Virus record (IMG/VR): IMGVR_UViG_2681813273_000011 | From: a virus | Lineage: Duplodnaviria; Heunggongvirae; Uroviricota; Caudoviricetes | Strand: one strand, 5' to 3' | Length of the DNA: 8,659 nt | Shown: piece after piece, positions 1-5,860 of the stretch | How positions within the stretch are numbered: position 1 is the first letter of the stretch | Layout of the letters: each line of letters opens with the position of its first letter | The notes under the pieces: generated by a model | The model's input: only the letters and a program-made list of their open reading frames with translations | Database searches by the model: none | Told to the model about the DNA's origin: nothing | Program-made: the position numbers and the translations under genes

Positions 1-44
1 ATTATCTGAACATAAAACACTATCAATAAGTTGGAGTCATTACC
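1..44. mobile_element. IS1 terminal inverted repeat; element body lies off the left edge of the window
   Basis: Bases 1-44 (attatctgaacataaaacactatcaataagttggagtcattacc) match the IS1 end GGTAATGACTCCAACTTATTGATAGTGTTTTATGTTCAGATAAT in reverse complement, as recalled from memory. Flanking sequence starts at 45. Confidence 0.85.
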
Positions 45-347
45 CGATATCCTGCTGAGAACATAAACACCCACGGATCGAGGCGTACGCTATCATGTTG
101 CTGTGCACCGCCCAGTTTATAATTGGCGATGGTATCGATATCCATGTACCACACTGACATGTTTTAAAAAATGCAATAAGACATTGTATCTGAAAGAAAA
201 AACAGGATTTTGAGGCGCTTTTTCATACCGTTTTCCGTGTTTTTAACTGCCTGATTTTATTGAAATCTTTTTTAGTTTTGCAGAAAGGATTTTTTGCTCG
301 ATCGCTTTAATTTTATACATTCCTGATAACGGAAATTTTTTTGCCCG

Positions 348-377
348 TTGACAGTTTTTGTTCTCCGGGGCTATATT
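348..377 (+). promoter_or_regulatory. sigma70-like promoter upstream of the rha-family gene
   Basis: TTGACA at 348-353, 18-bp spacer, TATATT at 372-377. Predicted start near 384-385, giving a ~235-nt leader before the ATG at 620. Confidence 0.45.
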
Positions 378-439
378 CCTCACACAACCGCAAAATCGGT
401 TGTCGGGATTGGCGTCTCGGATAACATCACAACGCATAG

Positions 440-459
440 CCGCGTTTGCGGTTTTTTTT
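440..459 (+). terminator. Terminator-like or attenuator hairpin inside the rha leader
   Basis: ccgc-gttt-gcgg short stem-loop followed by T8 (452-459). An upstream accgcaaa (388-395) is complementary to tttgcggt (445-452), so an alternative pairing is possible. The stem is short, so strength is uncertain. Confidence 0.3.
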
Positions 460-558
460 GCGTTAAGCATTGCCACATTCGCATTATGGTGGGGCGTGCA
501 GGGGCGGAGAAATCCGCGCCGGGTTTTGTGATGACCGGTTACGCCAACCCTGTACGTC

Positions 559-608
559 TCACCACCTCCCTGATTGGCGTCAGAGGTGGTGATCATCCAA
601 TTAATTGG
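559..608 (+). promoter_or_regulatory. 10-bp inverted repeat plus 12-bp perfect palindrome overlapping the rha ribosome-binding site; candidate operator or translational control element
   Basis: tcaccacctc (559-568) and gaggtggtga (583-592) are exact reverse complements around a 14-nt loop. ccaattaattgg (597-608) is a perfect palindrome ending in the GGAG Shine-Dalgarno (607-610). Confidence 0.35.
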
Positions 609-619
609 AGTCATCACAT

Positions 620-1177
620 ATGAATACAGCTATAACTTTTTCTAACGAGTCACCAAAAGTCTTTTTCAAAGATGGTCGCCTGGTTACCACCTCTCAAGCT
701 GTTGCCGACTACTTCGATAAACAACATAAACACGTTTTAGCTAAGATTGACACACTCGACTGCTCTCCCGAATTTACATCAGCCAACTTTTCGGCCGATG
801 TTCAGACTGTCGAAATTGGCAACGGCGCAGAACGTGAATCACGATGCTACCTGATCACAAAAGACGGCTTCATGTTCCTCGTAATGGGATTTACTGGCAA
901 AAAAGCAGCCAGACTAAAAGAAGCTTACATTGAAAAATTTAACGCAATGGAAGAAGAACTCCACAAACGTCCTCCTGCAGCACAAAACTCCCCCGCCCCA
1001 AATAATGGATGCGCATTACTGATCCACTTCGATAAACACGGTCAGGTCGAGTTCACAGAAAAAGTCCCCGCCGATGCGATGGTATGCACTCTGGAACGGT
1101 TTAAATTTTATCTGGAGCAACATGGGTGGATCGTTGCCCGTAAAGAACAATTGGTGGAAAGGTTGATGCGGTTTTAA
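620..1177 (+). CDS. Phage regulatory protein, Rha family (antirepressor-like)
   Basis: ORF track frame 605..1177. I place the start at ATG 620 because GGAG sits 9 nt upstream, giving MNTAITFSNESPKVFFKDGRLVTTSQAVADYFDKQHKHVLAKIDTL. The N-terminal region resembles the Rha family as I recall it. Stop TAA at 1175-1177. Confidence 0.75.
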   Translation: MNTAITFSNESPKVFFKDGRLVTTSQAVADYFDKQHKHVLAKIDTLDCSPEFTSANFSADVQTVEIGNGAERESRCYLITKDGFMFLVMGFTGKKAARLKEAYIEKFNAMEEELHKRPPAAQNSPAPNNGCALLIHFDKHGQVEFTEKVPADAMVCTLERFKFYLEQHGWIVARKEQLVERLMRF

Positions 1178-2987: not shown

Positions 2988-3199
2988 GGCCACTCAATAT
3001 CAGGTGCAGTTGATGTATCAACACGGTTCAGCAACACCCGATACTTCTTCCAGGCTTCCAGCAACGAGTTTTCTTCCTCCGTTGCGATCTCCAGATCTAC
3101 AGCATCCTGAAGTGGCGCAATATGCTCACTGAATTCCTGGATGTAGAACTGTGTGGTGACGGTCTTCCAGCCATTCGGCTCCTGCTGTATCGAAGCATA
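2988..3199 (-). pseudogene. tfa: Tfa C-terminal remnant, copy b; its 3' end is replaced by the IS110-family leader
   Basis: Minus frame ...[50 protein letters not shown], then reads into IS sequence. Differs from copy a at 13 positions across roughly 150 bp (1611-1760), then is identical towards the methyltransferase. Confidence 0.65.
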
Positions 3200-3262
3200 C
3201 TAGGCTATTTCAATATCGCTATGCTGCGGCAGCATTTAACCCCTTGTAATTCATCGCCATAA

Positions 3263-3291
3263 TTGATTTAATTCACAAATAAAACTATAAT
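3263..3291 (+). promoter_or_regulatory. sigma70-like promoter of methyltransferase cassette, copy 2
   Basis: TTGATT, 17-bp spacer, TATAAT (3286-3291), identical to copy 1. Confidence 0.5.
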
Positions 3292-3960
3292 ATGGTGAAA
3301 TTAATGAAAAAAAACACAGATGATGGGGCTAAAATTTACACACCACTTACCCTAAAGCTTTATGACTGGTGGGTTTTGGGAGTATCAAATCGGCTTGCAT
3401 GGGGATGTCCTACAAAGGAACACCTTCTTCCACACTTTCTGGAACATTTAGGTAACAACCATCTGGATATTGGTGTTGGAACTGGGTTTTACCTTACTCA
3501 CGTACCTGAGAGTAGTCTGATATCTTTAATGGATTTGAACGAAGCTAGCCTGAACGCGGCATCTACAAGGGCTGGGGAATCAAAAATTAAACATAAAATT
3601 AGCCATGATGTTTTTGAACCTTATCCCGCGGCGTTACATGGTCAATTTGATTCCATTTCCATGTTTTACCTTCTTCACTGCCTGCCTGGAAATATATCTA
3701 CAAAAAGCTGTGTAATACGCAATGCGGCGCAGGCCTTAACTGATGATGGAACTCTATACGGAGCCACAATTCTTGGCGATGGAGTTGTGCACAATAGCTT
3801 CGGTCAAAAACTGATGCGCATTTACAATCAGAAAGGCATCTTTTCAAACACAAAAGATTCCGAAGAAGGCTTAACACATATACTCTCAGAGCATTTCGAG
3901 AATGTTAAAACCAAGGTTCAAGGTACTGTAGTAATGTTTTCCGCTTCAGGGAAAAAATAG
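3292..3960 (+). CDS. Class I SAM-dependent methyltransferase (222 aa), substrate unknown
   Basis: ORF track 3292..3960. Contains a Rossmann-fold motif I (LDIGVGTGF), an acidic residue in ISLMDLNE, motif II-like FDSISMFYLLHCLP and motif III-like LTDDGTLYGATIL. I see no DPPY/NPPY or C5-cytosine motifs, so it is probably not a DNA methyltransferase. An alternative start is the ATG at 3304. Confidence 0.75.
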   Translation: MVKLMKKNTDDGAKIYTPLTLKLYDWWVLGVSNRLAWGCPTKEHLLPHFLEHLGNNHLDIGVGTGFYLTHVPESSLISLMDLNEASLNAASTRAGESKIKHKISHDVFEPYPAALHGQFDSISMFYLLHCLPGNISTKSCVIRNAAQALTDDGTLYGATILGDGVVHNSFGQKLMRIYNQKGIFSNTKDSEEGLTHILSEHFENVKTKVQGTVVMFSASGKK

Positions 3961-4706: not shown

Positions 4707-4739
4707 CCGTGGCACGTTCTTGCATACGACGTGCTACGG
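4707..4739. repeat. Stand-alone copy of the conserved hairpin element in AT-rich DNA
   Basis: ccgtggcacg - ttcttgcatacga - cgtgctacgg: a 10-bp stem with one G-T pair and the same loop family as the tfa-associated hairpins. Followed by a T-rich tract. Confidence 0.45.
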
Positions 4740-4863
4740 TTTCCTTTACGATTTGGGGTTGCGACTTTACCTCTATTGATAATGCATTCCGGCAGAACGT
4801 TCAAATATGAAGTACGATGTTTAACTAACCGAAAAACAAGAACAATACGGTGCAAGCAAGCTA

Positions 4864-4986
4864 TGAGGTAGCCTGAGTTTAACGGACACTCCTTCCTGAA
4901 ATAGAATGGCATCAGAAGGAGCTAATAATGAGCAGAAAAACCCAACGTTACTCTAAAGAGTTCAAAGCCGAAGCTGTCAGAACGGT
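4864..4986 (+). mobile_element. IS3-family (IS600-like) left end, truncated after 123 bp
   Basis: Starts TGAGGTAGCCTGAGTTTAACGGACACTCC..., identical to 8613-8659. An orfA start (ATG 4928, MSRKTQRYSKEFKAEAVRTV) matches my recollection of IS600 OrfA. The sequence switches abruptly at 4986/4987 to the tfa-remnant repeat. Confidence 0.7.
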
Positions 4987-5099
4987 TCATCCAGATCTAC
5001 AGCATCCTGAAGTGGCGCAATATGCTCACTGAATTCCTGGATGTAGAACTGTGTGGTGACGGTCTTCCAGCCATTCGGCTCCTGCTGTATCGAAGCATA
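4987..5099 (-). pseudogene. tfa: Tfa C-terminal remnant, third copy, 3'-truncated at the IS600-like junction
   Basis: Identical to 3087-3199 of copy b apart from the SNP at 5100 noted under the 1900-bp repeat finding. It begins at ccagatctacag directly after the IS fragment. Confidence 0.55.
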
Positions 5100-5162
5100 C
5101 CAGGCTATTTCAATATCGCTATGCTGCGGCAGCATTTAACCCCTTGTAATTCATCGCCATAA

Positions 5163-5191
5163 TTGATTTAATTCACAAATAAAACTATAAT
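5163..5191 (+). promoter_or_regulatory. sigma70-like promoter of methyltransferase cassette, copy 3
   Basis: Identical TTGATT - 17 bp - TATAAT arrangement. Confidence 0.5.
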
Positions 5192-5860
5192 ATGGTGAAA
5201 TTAATGAAAAAAAACACAGATGATGGGGCTAAAATTTACACACCACTTACCCTAAAGCTTTATGACTGGTGGGTTTTGGGAGTATCAAATCGGCTTGCAT
5301 GGGGATGTCCTACAAAGGAACACCTTCTTCCACACTTTCTGGAACATTTAGGTAACAACCATCTGGATATTGGTGTTGGAACTGGGTTTTACCTTACTCA
5401 CGTACCTGAGAGTAGTCTGATATCTTTAATGGATTTGAACGAAGCTAGCCTGAACGCGGCATCTACAAGGGCTGGGGAATCAAAAATTAAACATAAAATT
5501 AGCCATGATGTTTTTGAACCTTATCCCGCGGCGTTACATGGTCAATTTGATTCCATTTCCATGTTTTACCTTCTTCACTGCCTGCCTGGAAATATATCTA
5601 CAAAAAGCTGTGTAATACGCAATGCGGCGCAGGCCTTAACTGATGATGGAACTCTATACGGAGCCACAATTCTTGGCGATGGAGTTGTGCACAATAGCTT
5701 CGGTCAAAAACTGATGCGCATTTACAATCAGAAAGGCATCTTTTCAAACACAAAAGATTCCGAAGAAGGCTTAACACATATACTCTCAGAGCATTTCGAG
5801 AATGTTAAAACCAGGGTTCAAGGTACTGTAGTAATGTTTTCCGCTTCAGGGAAAAAATAG
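5192..5860 (+). CDS. Class I SAM-dependent methyltransferase (222 aa), copy 3
   Basis: ORF track 5192..5860. Differs from copy 2 by one residue (K to R near the C-terminus). Confidence 0.75.
   Translation: MVKLMKKNTDDGAKIYTPLTLKLYDWWVLGVSNRLAWGCPTKEHLLPHFLEHLGNNHLDIGVGTGFYLTHVPESSLISLMDLNEASLNAASTRAGESKIKHKISHDVFEPYPAALHGQFDSISMFYLLHCLPGNISTKSCVIRNAAQALTDDGTLYGATILGDGVVHNSFGQKLMRIYNQKGIFSNTKDSEEGLTHILSEHFENVKTRVQGTVVMFSASGKK

Follow-up and report, generated by a model that had tools for sequence, protein, structure and literature searches.

A Probable C4-Type Immunity Cassette Upstream of rha

The leader of the Rha-family gene in the analyzed stretch of phage DNA (8,659 nt, hereafter the window) is composed of two RNA genes that have already been described, IsrK and a C4-type antisense RNA, together with the C4 target sites, and positions 348–623 very probably represent a complete C4-type RNA immunity cassette with a Rha-family, antirepressor-like protein as cargo. 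The elements of the cassette all lie on the plus strand, in the 5′ to 3′ order promoter, IsrK (with a1, b1, and a terminator), C4-like RNA (with a′ and b′), a2, b2 at the ribosome-binding site, and rha. Our analyses establish the family membership of the leader, its anatomy, and covariation in all four loop–target pairings; as the module type is already known, the leader is real but ordinary, and not an unknown RNA.

The 257-nt RNA spanning positions 384–640 is predicted to fold with −97.6 kcal/mol, compared with −75.9 ± 5.1 kcal/mol for shuffled sequences (z = −4.27; 0 of 200 shuffles equally stable), and the GC content of the leader (52.8%) exceeds that of the sequence just upstream (30.9%) and of the whole window (43.9%). 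A search of the window for tRNA and tmRNA genes returned none. An isrK and a C4 element separated by approximately 25–35 nt, and located 5′ of antirepressor-type genes, are found in 12 phage loci including Gifsy-1. An earlier note, made from the sequence alone, had proposed, among other options, that a cis-regulatory RNA precedes an antirepressor-like gene, and this part of its reading is supported. All five structural elements that it listed are present, with only the coordinates of a long-range complement displaced by one base, and the cassette accounts for every one of them.

The IsrK Transcript

Transcription of isrK is predicted to start from a sigma-70 promoter (TTGACA-18-TATATT, 348–377) that matches 11 of the 12 consensus positions, and whose −10 region (CCGGGGCTATATTCC) is kept in the homologs. 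The predicted start, A384, was placed via the alignment to Gifsy-1; when Gifsy-1 is numbered from the base aligned to this start, all mutated residues given in the study of that element (PMC4825925) are recovered. Together with the intrinsic terminator, this promoter defines a predicted IsrK RNA of approximately 75 nt (384–459), the counterpart of the a1b1 leader in C4-type modules. The Rfam model of the Hfq-binding RNA isrK (RF01394) matches positions 384–458 over its full length (1–77 of 77) with 72.2 bits against a gathering score of 50. The c4-a1b1 model (RF03163) remains below its gathering score of 46.7 with 43.8 bits on positions 371–423 (E = 5.5e-10); this near miss is the same element as the one captured by the isrK model, and P1 and five sister loci exceed the threshold.

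Compensatory changes are seen in five of the seven base pairs of IsrK stem 1 (384–390/397–403), which is followed by hairpin 2 (404–408/415–419) with a1 in its loop. The pairing of hairpin 2 and of the terminator was taken from the Rfam model alignment rather than from our alignment of 13 leaders, in which indels disturb the terminator columns. The a1 site (ATTGGCGT, 408–415) is complementary to a′, as indicated by covariation and duplex energies, and its residues G411 and G414 correspond to G28 and G31 of Gifsy-1 IsrK. The b1 site (CATCACAA, 425–432) is single-stranded and complementary to the b′ loop, and its duplex with the b′ of its own module has an energy of −11.9 to −12.2 kcal/mol. The terminator (438–459) consists of AGCCGC-GTTT-GCGGTT (438–453) followed by T8 (452–459); its stem is weak, with six base pairs including one G-U pair around a GTTT loop, and shorter than in most homologs, all of which carry a terminator at the equivalent position. 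What had been noticed as a terminator-like hairpin is a real terminator; termination and read-through at its Gifsy-1 homolog give rise to two RNA isoforms (PMC4825925).

The C4-Like RNA and Its Target Sites

The C4-type antisense RNA (482–569), the equivalent of Salmonella STnc1160, matches Rfam C4 (RF01695) along the entire model (1–87 of 87) with 75.9 bits against a gathering score of 45. Folded alone it reaches a z score of −5.2, and its minimum-free-energy fold is the Rfam structure. The 17-bp basal stem P1 (487–503/548–564) is paired in 100% of the aligned leaders with four compensatory pairs; the same degree of pairing is found for stem P2 (504–508/513–517), in which all five pairs show compensatory changes and which is the GCGGA-GAAA-TCCGC tetraloop hairpin (504–517) pointed out before. 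Stem P3 (518–522/535–539) is invariant among the 13 leaders, and its 12-nt loop is b′ (GTTTTGTGATGA, with C535 added, 523–535), the core of which (TGTGATGAC) pairs with both b1 and b2. The a′ sequence (ACGCCAA, 541–547) is located in the C4 junction and, based on covariation, pairs with a1 and a2; its residues C542 and C545 are the counterparts of Gifsy-1 C159 and C162.

The a2 site (GATTGGCGTC, 572–581) is a duplicate of a1, of which positions 574–580 pair with a′ 541–547. It is presented in the loop of a hairpin (559–592) formed by the 10-bp inverted repeat that the note had correctly described (TCACCACCTC, 559–568; GAGGTGGTGA, 583–592). One arm of this repeat is supplied by the 3′ strand of C4 stem P1 (TCACCACC) and the other, located downstream, by a copy of the 5′ strand of the same stem (GGTGGTGA), and the a2 hairpin and C4 stem P1 are mutually exclusive. 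An 8-bp core is found in all 13 leaders and includes one compensatory A-U to G-C change, while the outer 2 bp are not conserved; the same arrangement is found in P1 immI.

The Shine-Dalgarno sequence of rha (GGAG, 607–610) is followed by b2 (GTCATCACA, 610–618), directly 5′ of the ATG at 620, and the duplex between b′ 527–535 and b2 610–618 has an energy of −10.3 to −13.9 kcal/mol. This placement differs from that in the other sampled modules, where b2 precedes the start codon by 5–15 nt in an overlap with the Shine-Dalgarno sequence, and it was sought in the homologs but not seen. In the minimum-free-energy fold of RNA 384–640, a lineage-specific hairpin (586–617) pairs GUGGUGAU (586–593) with GUCAUCAC (610–617); alone it has −13.9 kcal/mol, and it is capped by a smaller hairpin (596–600/605–609) derived from a 12-bp palindrome (CCAATTAATTGG, 597–608), which had been correctly recorded as overlapping the ribosome-binding site. 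Judging from this fold, hairpin 586–617 may sequester the rha ribosome-binding site.

Covariation and Specificity of the Loop–Target Pairings

Covariation was computed on the 13 aligned leaders, and duplex energies on 52 nonredundant homologous modules, which hold 15 sequence variants of a′ and 34 of b′. The a1:a′ helix is 100% paired in the 13 leaders, with compensatory changes in five of six pairs, and the main segment of a′:a2 is 92% paired, with compensatory changes in five of five; the C4 stems P1 and P2 together contribute nine compensatory pairs. The covariation score of the tested leader structure (a1:a′, the C4 stems, and the IsrK helices) was reached by none of 500 column shuffles, and sliding the partner by one to three columns drops the pairing from 91% to 38–47%.

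Across the 52 modules, the a′ and b′ loops of each module fit their own four target sites far better than those of another module. The mean duplex energies for the own and for other modules are −11.3 and −4.2 kcal/mol for b′–b1, −12.3 and −5.9 kcal/mol for b′–b2, −8.5 and −1.7 kcal/mol for a′–a1, and −9.3 and −2.7 kcal/mol for a′–a2; targets from other modules equal a module's own in only 2–3% of cases.

The rha Cargo and Its Genomic Context

The rha gene (620–1177) encodes a protein of 185 aa that matches Pfam Phage_pRha with 95.3 bits as well as TIGR02681, and its C-terminal 65 residues are 32% identical to Gifsy-1 AnrP. The cargo of homologous modules is an ORF6N, P22_AR_C, Bro-N, Rha, or Derepression-family protein. 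Sister modules carry cargo genes annotated as antirepressors, with ORF6N/P22_AR_C, Bro-N, or Derepression domains; the cargo here has a Rha domain and is a putative antirepressor.

The cassette occupies the margin of a degraded prophage, flanked by an ompW fragment and tail-fiber debris, and is preceded by an AT-rich spacer, the OmpW fragment, and an IS1 end. This raises the alternative of a relic: a cassette with an intact sequence but an orphaned function in a decayed prophage, silent or expressed without regulatory consequence for the host. The neighboring genes (ompW, DUF4376, tail-fiber assembly, and recombinase) are pseudogenes and fragments, the IS1 end lies 300 bp upstream, and neither a Q-like gene (antQ, the downstream output in Gifsy-1) nor a repressor gene was found near the cassette. 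Approximately 400 genomes carry the locus at an identity of at least 99%, suggesting clonal inheritance rather than visible selection; of the window as a whole, at most 66% is present in any complete Escherichia coli genome. Against this, every functional element is intact: the promoter retains 11 of 12 consensus positions, both the upstream open reading frame (ORF) and the 185-aa Rha ORF are open, and the pairings are perfect over 7–9 nt for a1, a2, and b2 and over 8 nt for b1. We therefore regard a relic as unlikely.

Attenuation, Operators, and the Annotated ash Gene

The elements recorded in the earlier note are conserved to different extents upstream of homologous genes: the terminator, the tetraloop hairpin, and the 8-bp core of the inverted repeat are retained, but the palindrome and the long-range complement are not. 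The latter bears on the suggestion of an attenuator or antitermination leader, in its strict form a self-contained switch in which pairing of 386–394 with 445–453 acts as antiterminator and decides read-through into rha, with no trans-acting RNA involved. The complement is real, and extends to 9 bp (386–394 with 445–453), with the 5′ arm that had been assigned to 388–395 located at 387–394 (ACCGCAAA). In the isolated 77-nt RNA this pairing is the minimum-free-energy fold (−24.0 kcal/mol vs. −20.5 kcal/mol for the canonical three hairpins), and the weak terminator stem and the read-through observed in the Gifsy-1 homolog would also suit such a mechanism. However, it is the sole candidate antiterminator and occurs in just 1 of 83 distinct folded IsrK variants, the window's own, and is absent from the other 82, and therefore is not a feature of the family. 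Furthermore, folding the complete leader restores the canonical hairpins, stem 1 is the earliest to form as the RNA is transcribed and would need to be displaced, and the covarying a and b sites are left unexplained, all of which makes self-contained attenuation very unlikely.

It had also been suggested that the symmetric sequences are operator sites, and the inverted repeat and the palindrome could in principle bind a repressor or Rha as DNA and thereby control transcription or block elongation. Both sequences are perfectly symmetric and near the rha start, and the P1 immI promoter is under the control of a C1 operator. The inverted repeat, however, is located approximately 200 bp downstream of the promoter, its arms derive from C4 stem P1, and its A-U to G-C change is compensatory as in an RNA helix; the arrangement is moreover present in P1 too. 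The palindrome was sought in the homologs and is absent from all of them, being unique to the present lineage; one 12-bp palindrome is seen where 2.4 perfect ones are expected in a shuffled window of equal size, and RNA 593–640, which contains it, folds no better than shuffles (z = −0.24). A role of these sequences as DNA operators is thus highly improbable.

A 45-codon ORF (486–623), the equivalent of orf45 of Gifsy-1 by its length and its overlap with the cargo gene, begins with an ATG in the 5′ strand of C4 stem P1 and ends with a TGA that overlaps the rha ATG as ATGA (620–623). Among 110 homologs, the ORF from the conserved ATG spans between 14 and 416 codons and in many cases shares the frame of the cargo or uses another one, and a conserved orf45 peptide was ruled out since length and frame vary. 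In Salmonella, orf45 is translated and needed for coupling (PMC4825925). As summarized in PMC12197685, that study (PMC4825925) reports a conserved nucleotide but variable amino acid sequence for orf45. That region 348–623 is instead a protein gene, the RefSeq 91-aa "ash family protein," with its conservation being protein-coding, is very improbable: PGAP annotates the ash CDS in hundreds of Escherichia coli genomes, Pfam Phage_ASH (PF10554) matches its translation with 53.8 bits, and its 3′ 45 codons are translated in Salmonella, but the CDS begins inside the −35 hexamer and crosses the intrinsic terminator, a stop in the ash frame one codon upstream of the conserved ATG is found in 24 of the 110 homologs, the ORF is kept in neither frame nor length among these, no NCBIfam model matches the translation, and leader variation tracks RNA base-pairing rather than codon structure. 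A 124-aa ORF on the minus strand (243–617) was rejected as a protein, having no Pfam match.

Comparison with Gifsy-1, P1, and P4

The closest described counterpart is isrK-orf45-anrP of Gifsy-1 (Hershko-Shalev et al. 2016, PMC4825925), which has an orthologous layout with an identical promoter −10 block, an IsrK with the same three hairpins and terminator, and, as in the window, a C4-like element approximately 25 nt downstream. The a specificity (TTGGCG/CGCCAA) is the same, the residues mutated in Gifsy-1 (G28, G31, C159, C162, G173, C175, and A107) align to identical bases in the window, which keeps the pairs G411:C545 and G414:C542, and in both a 45-codon ORF extends from the C4 basal stem to an ATGA shared with the cargo gene. 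The cargo proteins are homologous in their C-terminal domains, whereas the N-terminal domain is Rha (PF09669) here and ORF6N in Gifsy-1. The two further differ in their b specificity (GGTGAT in Gifsy-1, TGTGATGA here) and in the position of b2, which in Gifsy-1 is 5′ of the Shine-Dalgarno sequence and here between this sequence and the AUG; the ORF of the window lacks the second in-frame AUG of orf45, the terminator is weaker, and an ompW fragment and IS1 are found upstream in place of antQ.

Citron and Schuster are said to have described, in 1990, the immI operon of P1 and P7 with the c4 antisense RNA, a1/b1, a2/b2, icd, and ant. In the P1 annotation (NC_005856), a1, b1, c4, a2, b2, and icd of immI map one-to-one onto the window, and the P1 locus matches the C4, c4-a1b1, and, below threshold (35 bits), isrK models in the same order and spacing. 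Both share a weak terminator-like hairpin, an a2 presented by a hairpin loop, and a b2 located where ribosomes bind for the next ORF, with an antirepressor-type gene further downstream. In P1, icd (a cell-division inhibitor of 73 aa) is inserted between b2 and ant, whereas in the window b2 lies directly at the start of the cargo; the ORF through C4 is absent from P1, with a stop after 14 codons, whereas here the 45-codon ORF spans C4; and no equivalent of the C1 operator at the P1 promoter was identified in the window. Specificity that differs between phages is the basis of P1/P7 heteroimmunity (PMC12197685).

The immunity system of P4 (seqA, CI RNA/seqB, seqC) also uses a leader-processed RNA that pairs with sites up- and downstream of itself; this likeness is by analogy only, and in P4 the result is that transcription of the replication operon ends prematurely, as opposed to translational control of an antirepressor. 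The authors of the Gifsy-1 study consider IsrK a structural homolog of SeqA, and compare STnc1160 with CI RNA (PMC4825925).

A Model for the Control of rha

As a model for the cassette, the single sigma-70 promoter (348–377) would start transcription at approximately position 384, and most transcripts would end at the terminator (438–459) to yield IsrK of approximately 75 nt, with a1 in a hairpin loop and b1 single-stranded. Read-through transcripts would carry the C4-like element (482–569), a2, b2, the 45-codon upstream ORF, and rha. Loops a′ and b′ could then bind a2 and b2 either on the same long RNA or, once C4 has been processed out, in trans. Given the position of b2 between the Shine-Dalgarno sequence and the AUG, this pairing would block ribosome binding and keep Rha off. 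Repression of the cargo by C4 through a2 and b2 has been shown for P1 and P7, and not for IsrK-type modules; we infer that it may operate in the present one. In P1, a mature C4 RNA of approximately 77 nt is released from the leader by RNase P processing. Processing of C4 out of the leader in the window is likewise plausible, and any role of Rho would be equally conjectural.

As IsrK has duplicate targets, a1 and b1, it would compete for the a′ and b′ loops. In cis, IsrK would lock the long RNA in a translationally silent fold, whereas excess IsrK in trans would free the start of the upstream ORF and the downstream sites, leading to Rha synthesis via translational coupling at the ATGA overlap. 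For Gifsy-1, the pairings G28:C162 and G31:C159 were shown by compensatory mutagenesis, IsrK activates in trans with a dependence on orf45, and a processed species, STnc1160, is reported; control there is explained via the orf45 ribosome-binding site, with no structural change at that of anrP (PMC4825925).

Besides the trans pairing already described, the cassette of the present lineage may act as a cis relay. The resemblance of b2 to the 3′ strand of C4 stem P1 enables b2 (610–617) to pair with the conserved GGUGGUGA (586–593), and three mutually exclusive helices would form the relay: C4 stem P1, the a2 hairpin (559–592), and the ribosome-binding-site hairpin (586–617), in which the palindrome-capped structure would bury the Shine-Dalgarno sequence. 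If a ribosome starting at AUG 486, or bound IsrK, opened the C4 basal stem, the rha ribosome-binding site would be opened in turn. On the same reading, IsrK would serve as a decoy dedicated to the C4-like repressor RNA, and the many a/b combinations would insulate co-resident prophages from each other; we put forward the relay, the decoy, and the insulation tentatively, as one joint and rather doubtful proposal.

Implications for C4-Type Modules and Their Hosts

The discovery value of this cassette is small, both RNAs being curated Rfam families and the module type having been dissected in P1/P7 and in Salmonella Gifsy-1. Its practical value is that IsrK is documented as the a1b1 leader of a C4-type module, as reviews still treat IsrK and c4 separately, and that a variant with b2 between the Shine-Dalgarno sequence and the AUG is recorded. 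The RefSeq "ash family protein" CDS is here the translation of an RNA element, and this probably holds for Pfam PF10554 as well. Antirepressors are able to act in trans on other resident prophages. The cassette is carried by approximately 450 of 5,426 complete E. coli genomes, ST131 strains such as NZ_CP103710 among them, and could therefore matter for prophage cross-talk, if Rha is an active antirepressor.

Identity of the Leader

Searched against Rfam with the gathering thresholds as cut-off, the window has two full-length matches inside the leader of rha: isrK (RF01394) at 384–458, with 72.2 bits against a gathering score of 50, and C4 antisense RNA (RF01695) at 482–569, with 75.9 bits against 45. 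The family c4-a1b1 (RF03163, "a1, b1 targets of C4 antisense RNA") matches at 371–423, overlapping the 5′ half of IsrK, at 43.8 bits, below its gathering score of 46.7. Similar DNA was found in the phage collection in Gifsy-1, many Stx-converting phages, phiV10, P88, and an Actinobacillus phage. In 12 of the 12 phage loci fetched, the isrK match is followed 25–35 nt later by a C4 match, and the genes that follow the pair encode ORF6N/P22_AR_C, Bro-N, Rha, or "Derepression" domains and in several cases carry antirepressor annotation. Phage P1 immI shows the order seen in the window (C4 68.8 bits, c4-a1b1 51 bits, isrK 35 bits and below threshold), and the window maps part for part onto the annotation of the P1 record, which lists a promoter, a1, b1, c4, a2, b2, icd, and ant and also gives the target sites of P1 c4. 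The element is a member of known families, namely Rfam isrK and C4, the P1 immI-type module, and the Gifsy-1 isrK locus; the cassette is already known and not a new kind of element.

On the plus strand, a near-consensus sigma-70 promoter (TTGACA-18-TATATT, 348–377) precedes a predicted transcription start at A384; Gifsy-1 numbering from the aligned base reproduces all residues named in the mutagenesis paper on that locus. IsrK (384–459) consists of stem 1 (384–390/397–403), hairpin 2 (404–408/415–419) with target a1 (ATTGGCGT, 408–415) in its loop, the single-stranded target b1 (CATCACAA, 425–432), and a terminator (438–459), and is separated by a spacer (460–481) from the C4-like RNA (482–569). 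The latter is built of the basal stem P1 (487–503/548–564), stem P2 (504–517), stem P3 (518–522/535–539), whose 12-nt loop is b′ (core TGTGATGAC, 527–535), and the junction a′ (ACGCCAA, 541–547). Downstream, target a2 (GATTGGCGTC, 572–581) lies in the loop of an inverted-repeat hairpin (559–568/583–592), followed by the Shine-Dalgarno sequence (607–610), target b2 (GTCATCACA, 610–618), and the rha ATG (620). A 45-codon upstream open reading frame (ORF) runs from an ATG at 486, inside the 5′ strand of P1, to a TGA at 621–623, overlapping the rha ATG as ATGA.

Surrounding the −10 hexamer, the block CCGGGGCTATATTCC (361–383; homologous positions in loci L002–L013) is almost invariant and common to E. 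coli, Salmonella, and Actinobacillus phage modules despite their differing a and b specificities. This conservation exceeds the needs of a −10 hexamer, and the block could be where a shared regulator binds, or else a discriminator element.

Evidence for the Pairings

The covariation analysis proposed in the earlier note was run on 13 aligned leaders and supported a1:a′, a′:a2, P1, P2, and the core of the inverted repeat. In the a1:a′ helix every alignment cell is paired (100%), and five of six pairs show compensatory double changes; P1 and P2 are likewise 100% paired, with 4 and 5 compensatory pairs, respectively. The covariation score of the a1:a′/C4 structure was reached by none of 500 column shuffles, and sliding the partner by 1–3 columns lowered pairing from 91% to 38–47%. 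All five pairs of the main a′:a2 segment carry compensatory changes, and the inverted-repeat hairpin has a conserved 8-bp core in which one pair has changed from A-U to G-C in compensatory fashion; the outer 2 bp of this hairpin are not conserved.

Further modules were added by a pattern scan of viral contigs, giving a parsed set of 110 modules (52 nonredundant) with 15 a′ and 34 b′ sequence variants. We compared duplex energies of the C4 loops with the targets of their own module and with those of modules having a different loop: b′-b1 gave −11.3 versus −4.2 kcal/mol, b′-b2 −12.3 versus −5.9, a′-a1 −8.5 versus −1.7, and a′-a2 −9.3 versus −2.7, and only 2–3% of other-module targets matched a module's own in quality. 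These differences show two co-evolving partner sets for the C4-like RNA, one upstream in IsrK and one downstream at the cargo translation start.

Proposed Regulation

In Gifsy-1, the isrK promoter yields a short terminated IsrK and a read-through isrK-orf45-anrP mRNA, which is kept translationally silent by base pairing between the middle of IsrK and the 3′ portion of orf45; compensatory mutations proved the pairs G28:C162 and G31:C159 (PMC4825925). Short IsrK supplied in trans raises translation about 100-fold, activation requiring translation of orf45, which is then coupled to anrP, and a processed RNA, STnc1160, derives from the orf45 region (PMC4825925). Residue mapping identifies the Gifsy-1 "helix b-I" as the a1:a′ pairing and STnc1160/orf45 as the C4-like RNA. 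The mutated Gifsy-1 residues are all identical in the window (G411, G414, C542, C545, G556, C558, and A486), and orf45 and anrP overlap exactly as do the 45-codon ORF and rha. In P1 and P7, as summarized in a review, c4 RNA pairs around the ribosome-binding site of the downstream message, stopping antirepressor synthesis (Citron and Schuster 1990, cited in PMC12197685).

Combining the two sets of data, we infer a mechanism for the window in which the a′ and b′ loops would cover a2 and b2, shutting the rha start; IsrK, with duplicate targets, would compete for the same loops; and ribosomes starting at AUG 486 would open the C4 basal stem, the ATGA overlap carrying translation on to rha. The scheme would include repression through a2/b2 in a module of the IsrK type, processing that acts on the C4 element, and possibly Rho-dependent polarity.

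P1 immI (L014 48395–48440) reads CCTGCCACC, TTGACAG (a2), GGTAGCAGG, and so has the a2-in-hairpin-loop arrangement that the 10-bp inverted repeat makes in the window. It thus looks general among C4-type modules that the C4 basal stem competes with a hairpin presenting a2.

Structural Elements and Lineage-Specific Features

The five elements listed in the earlier note are all present: the terminator-like hairpin AGCCGC-GTTT-GCGGTT (438–453) with its T8 run (452–459); the tetraloop hairpin GCGGA-GAAA-TCCGC (504–517), which is P2; the perfect 10-bp inverted repeat (TCACCACCTC 559–568, GAGGTGGTGA 583–592); the 12-bp palindrome CCAATTAATTGG (597–608) overlapping the Shine-Dalgarno GGAG (607–610); and the long-range complement, whose 5′ arm needed a shift of one base (387–394, not 388–395) and which can be extended to 9 bp (386–394 with 445–453). 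The density of structure noted there is real, since RNA 384–640 folds at −97.6 kcal/mol against −75.9 ± 5.1 in dinucleotide shuffles (z = −4.27); leader GC is 52.8% versus 30.9% immediately upstream. Two of the five elements, the palindrome and the long-range complement, are each not significant alone: 2.4 perfect 12-bp palindromes are expected per shuffled window and one is observed, RNA 593–640, which contains it, folds no better than shuffles, and the complement is present in only 1 of 83 distinct homologous sequences.

In the window, b2 is placed between the Shine-Dalgarno sequence and the AUG, whereas in all other sampled modules it overlaps the Shine-Dalgarno sequence, its end lying 5–15 nt short of the start codon; the window's b′ sequence is absent from every other sampled module. 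Similarity to the 3′ strand of P1 allows b2 to pair with the conserved GGUGGUGA element (586–593 with 610–617). The predicted hairpin (−13.9 kcal/mol), capped by the palindrome hairpin 596–600/605–609, buries the Shine-Dalgarno sequence and belongs to the minimum-free-energy fold of the full leader. It would link P1, the a2 hairpin, and the ribosome-binding-site hairpin in a series of helices that exclude one another, and gives the palindrome a possible role, as a thermodynamic prediction for a single lineage. The terminator stem of the window is short, and the 9-bp complement, also a single-lineage feature, could lower termination efficiency.

Alternative Readings and Genomic Context

Functionally, the cassette may be an orphan: the prophage at whose edge it sits, inserted in ompW next to trpA, is degraded, an IS1 end lies upstream, and antQ is absent. 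Every functional element is nevertheless intact. The first 44 bases (1–44) are an IS1 terminal inverted-repeat end with one mismatch to the annotated P1 IS1, adjoined by a C-terminal OmpW fragment (26–160, minus strand; Pfam OmpW, 48 bits), and in E. coli genomes the locus lies between trpA and a truncated ompW; the cassette is therefore the outermost remnant of a prophage integrated in ompW.

Elsewhere in the window, a segment of at least 300 nt occurs in three copies of 99–100% identity (1713–2012, 3090–3389, and 4990–5289), spaced 1377 and 1900 bases apart. Two 222-aa ORFs, 1,900 bases apart (3292–3960 and 5192–5860), have the length and relative position of the "class I SAM-dependent methyltransferase" annotated in a related E. 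coli locus (L001), where the neighbors are annotated as tail-fibre-assembly and recombinase fragments; a third, shorter copy lies at 1915–2529. Rfam matches above gathering scores to IS009 (3009–3212, minus strand; 130 bits) and CssrB ("chromosome-encoded Shigella sRNA B"; 4708–4886, minus strand; 121 bits) both lie inside this repeated tail-fibre and methyltransferase region. The amplified arrangement is unusual, since at most 66% of the window is found in any one complete E. coli genome.

A protein-coding reading comes from the RefSeq/PGAP "ash family protein" CDS at 348–623 (plus strand), whose translation matches Pfam Phage_ASH (PF10554) at 53.8 bits; its ORF, however, begins in the promoter −35 hexamer, passes through the IsrK terminator, and keeps neither its frame nor its length among 110 homologues. 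Translation is plausible for the 45-codon part only, and Phage_ASH seems to be a protein family derived from translated IsrK/C4 RNA sequence. In phage PhiR55_1 (L010 1132–2283), the RNA module likewise falls within a CDS annotated as a 383-aa "Rha protein".

The earlier note had left a choice between an attenuator or antitermination leader, a cis-regulatory RNA, and operator sites; its observation is confirmed and its interpretation supported in part, for the RNA reading. Operator sites on the DNA are unlikely, given that the inverted repeat behaves like an RNA helix in an arrangement also found in P1 and that the palindrome is unique and of no statistical note; an attenuator acting purely in cis is also unlikely, its antiterminator candidate not being conserved.

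Relationship of IsrK, C4, and Cargo Genes

The cargo differs in its N-terminal domain, Rha in the window and ORF6N in Gifsy-1 AnrP, whereas over their C-terminal ~65 residues the Rha-family protein and AnrP share 32% identity (E = 3e-6; window 980–1174, Gifsy-1 locus L002 2125–2316), a pattern that suggests shuffling of domains around an effector or partner-binding domain that cassette cargo genes have in common. Through the overlap of the isrK and c4-a1b1 matches, Rfam implicitly identifies IsrK as the a1b1 leader of a C4-type module, and an analogy with P4 SeqA and CI RNA hinted at this identity (PMC4825925); a 2025 review still gives IsrK and c4 separate entries (PMC12197685). Stating the link explicitly is not a discovery but a useful clarification.
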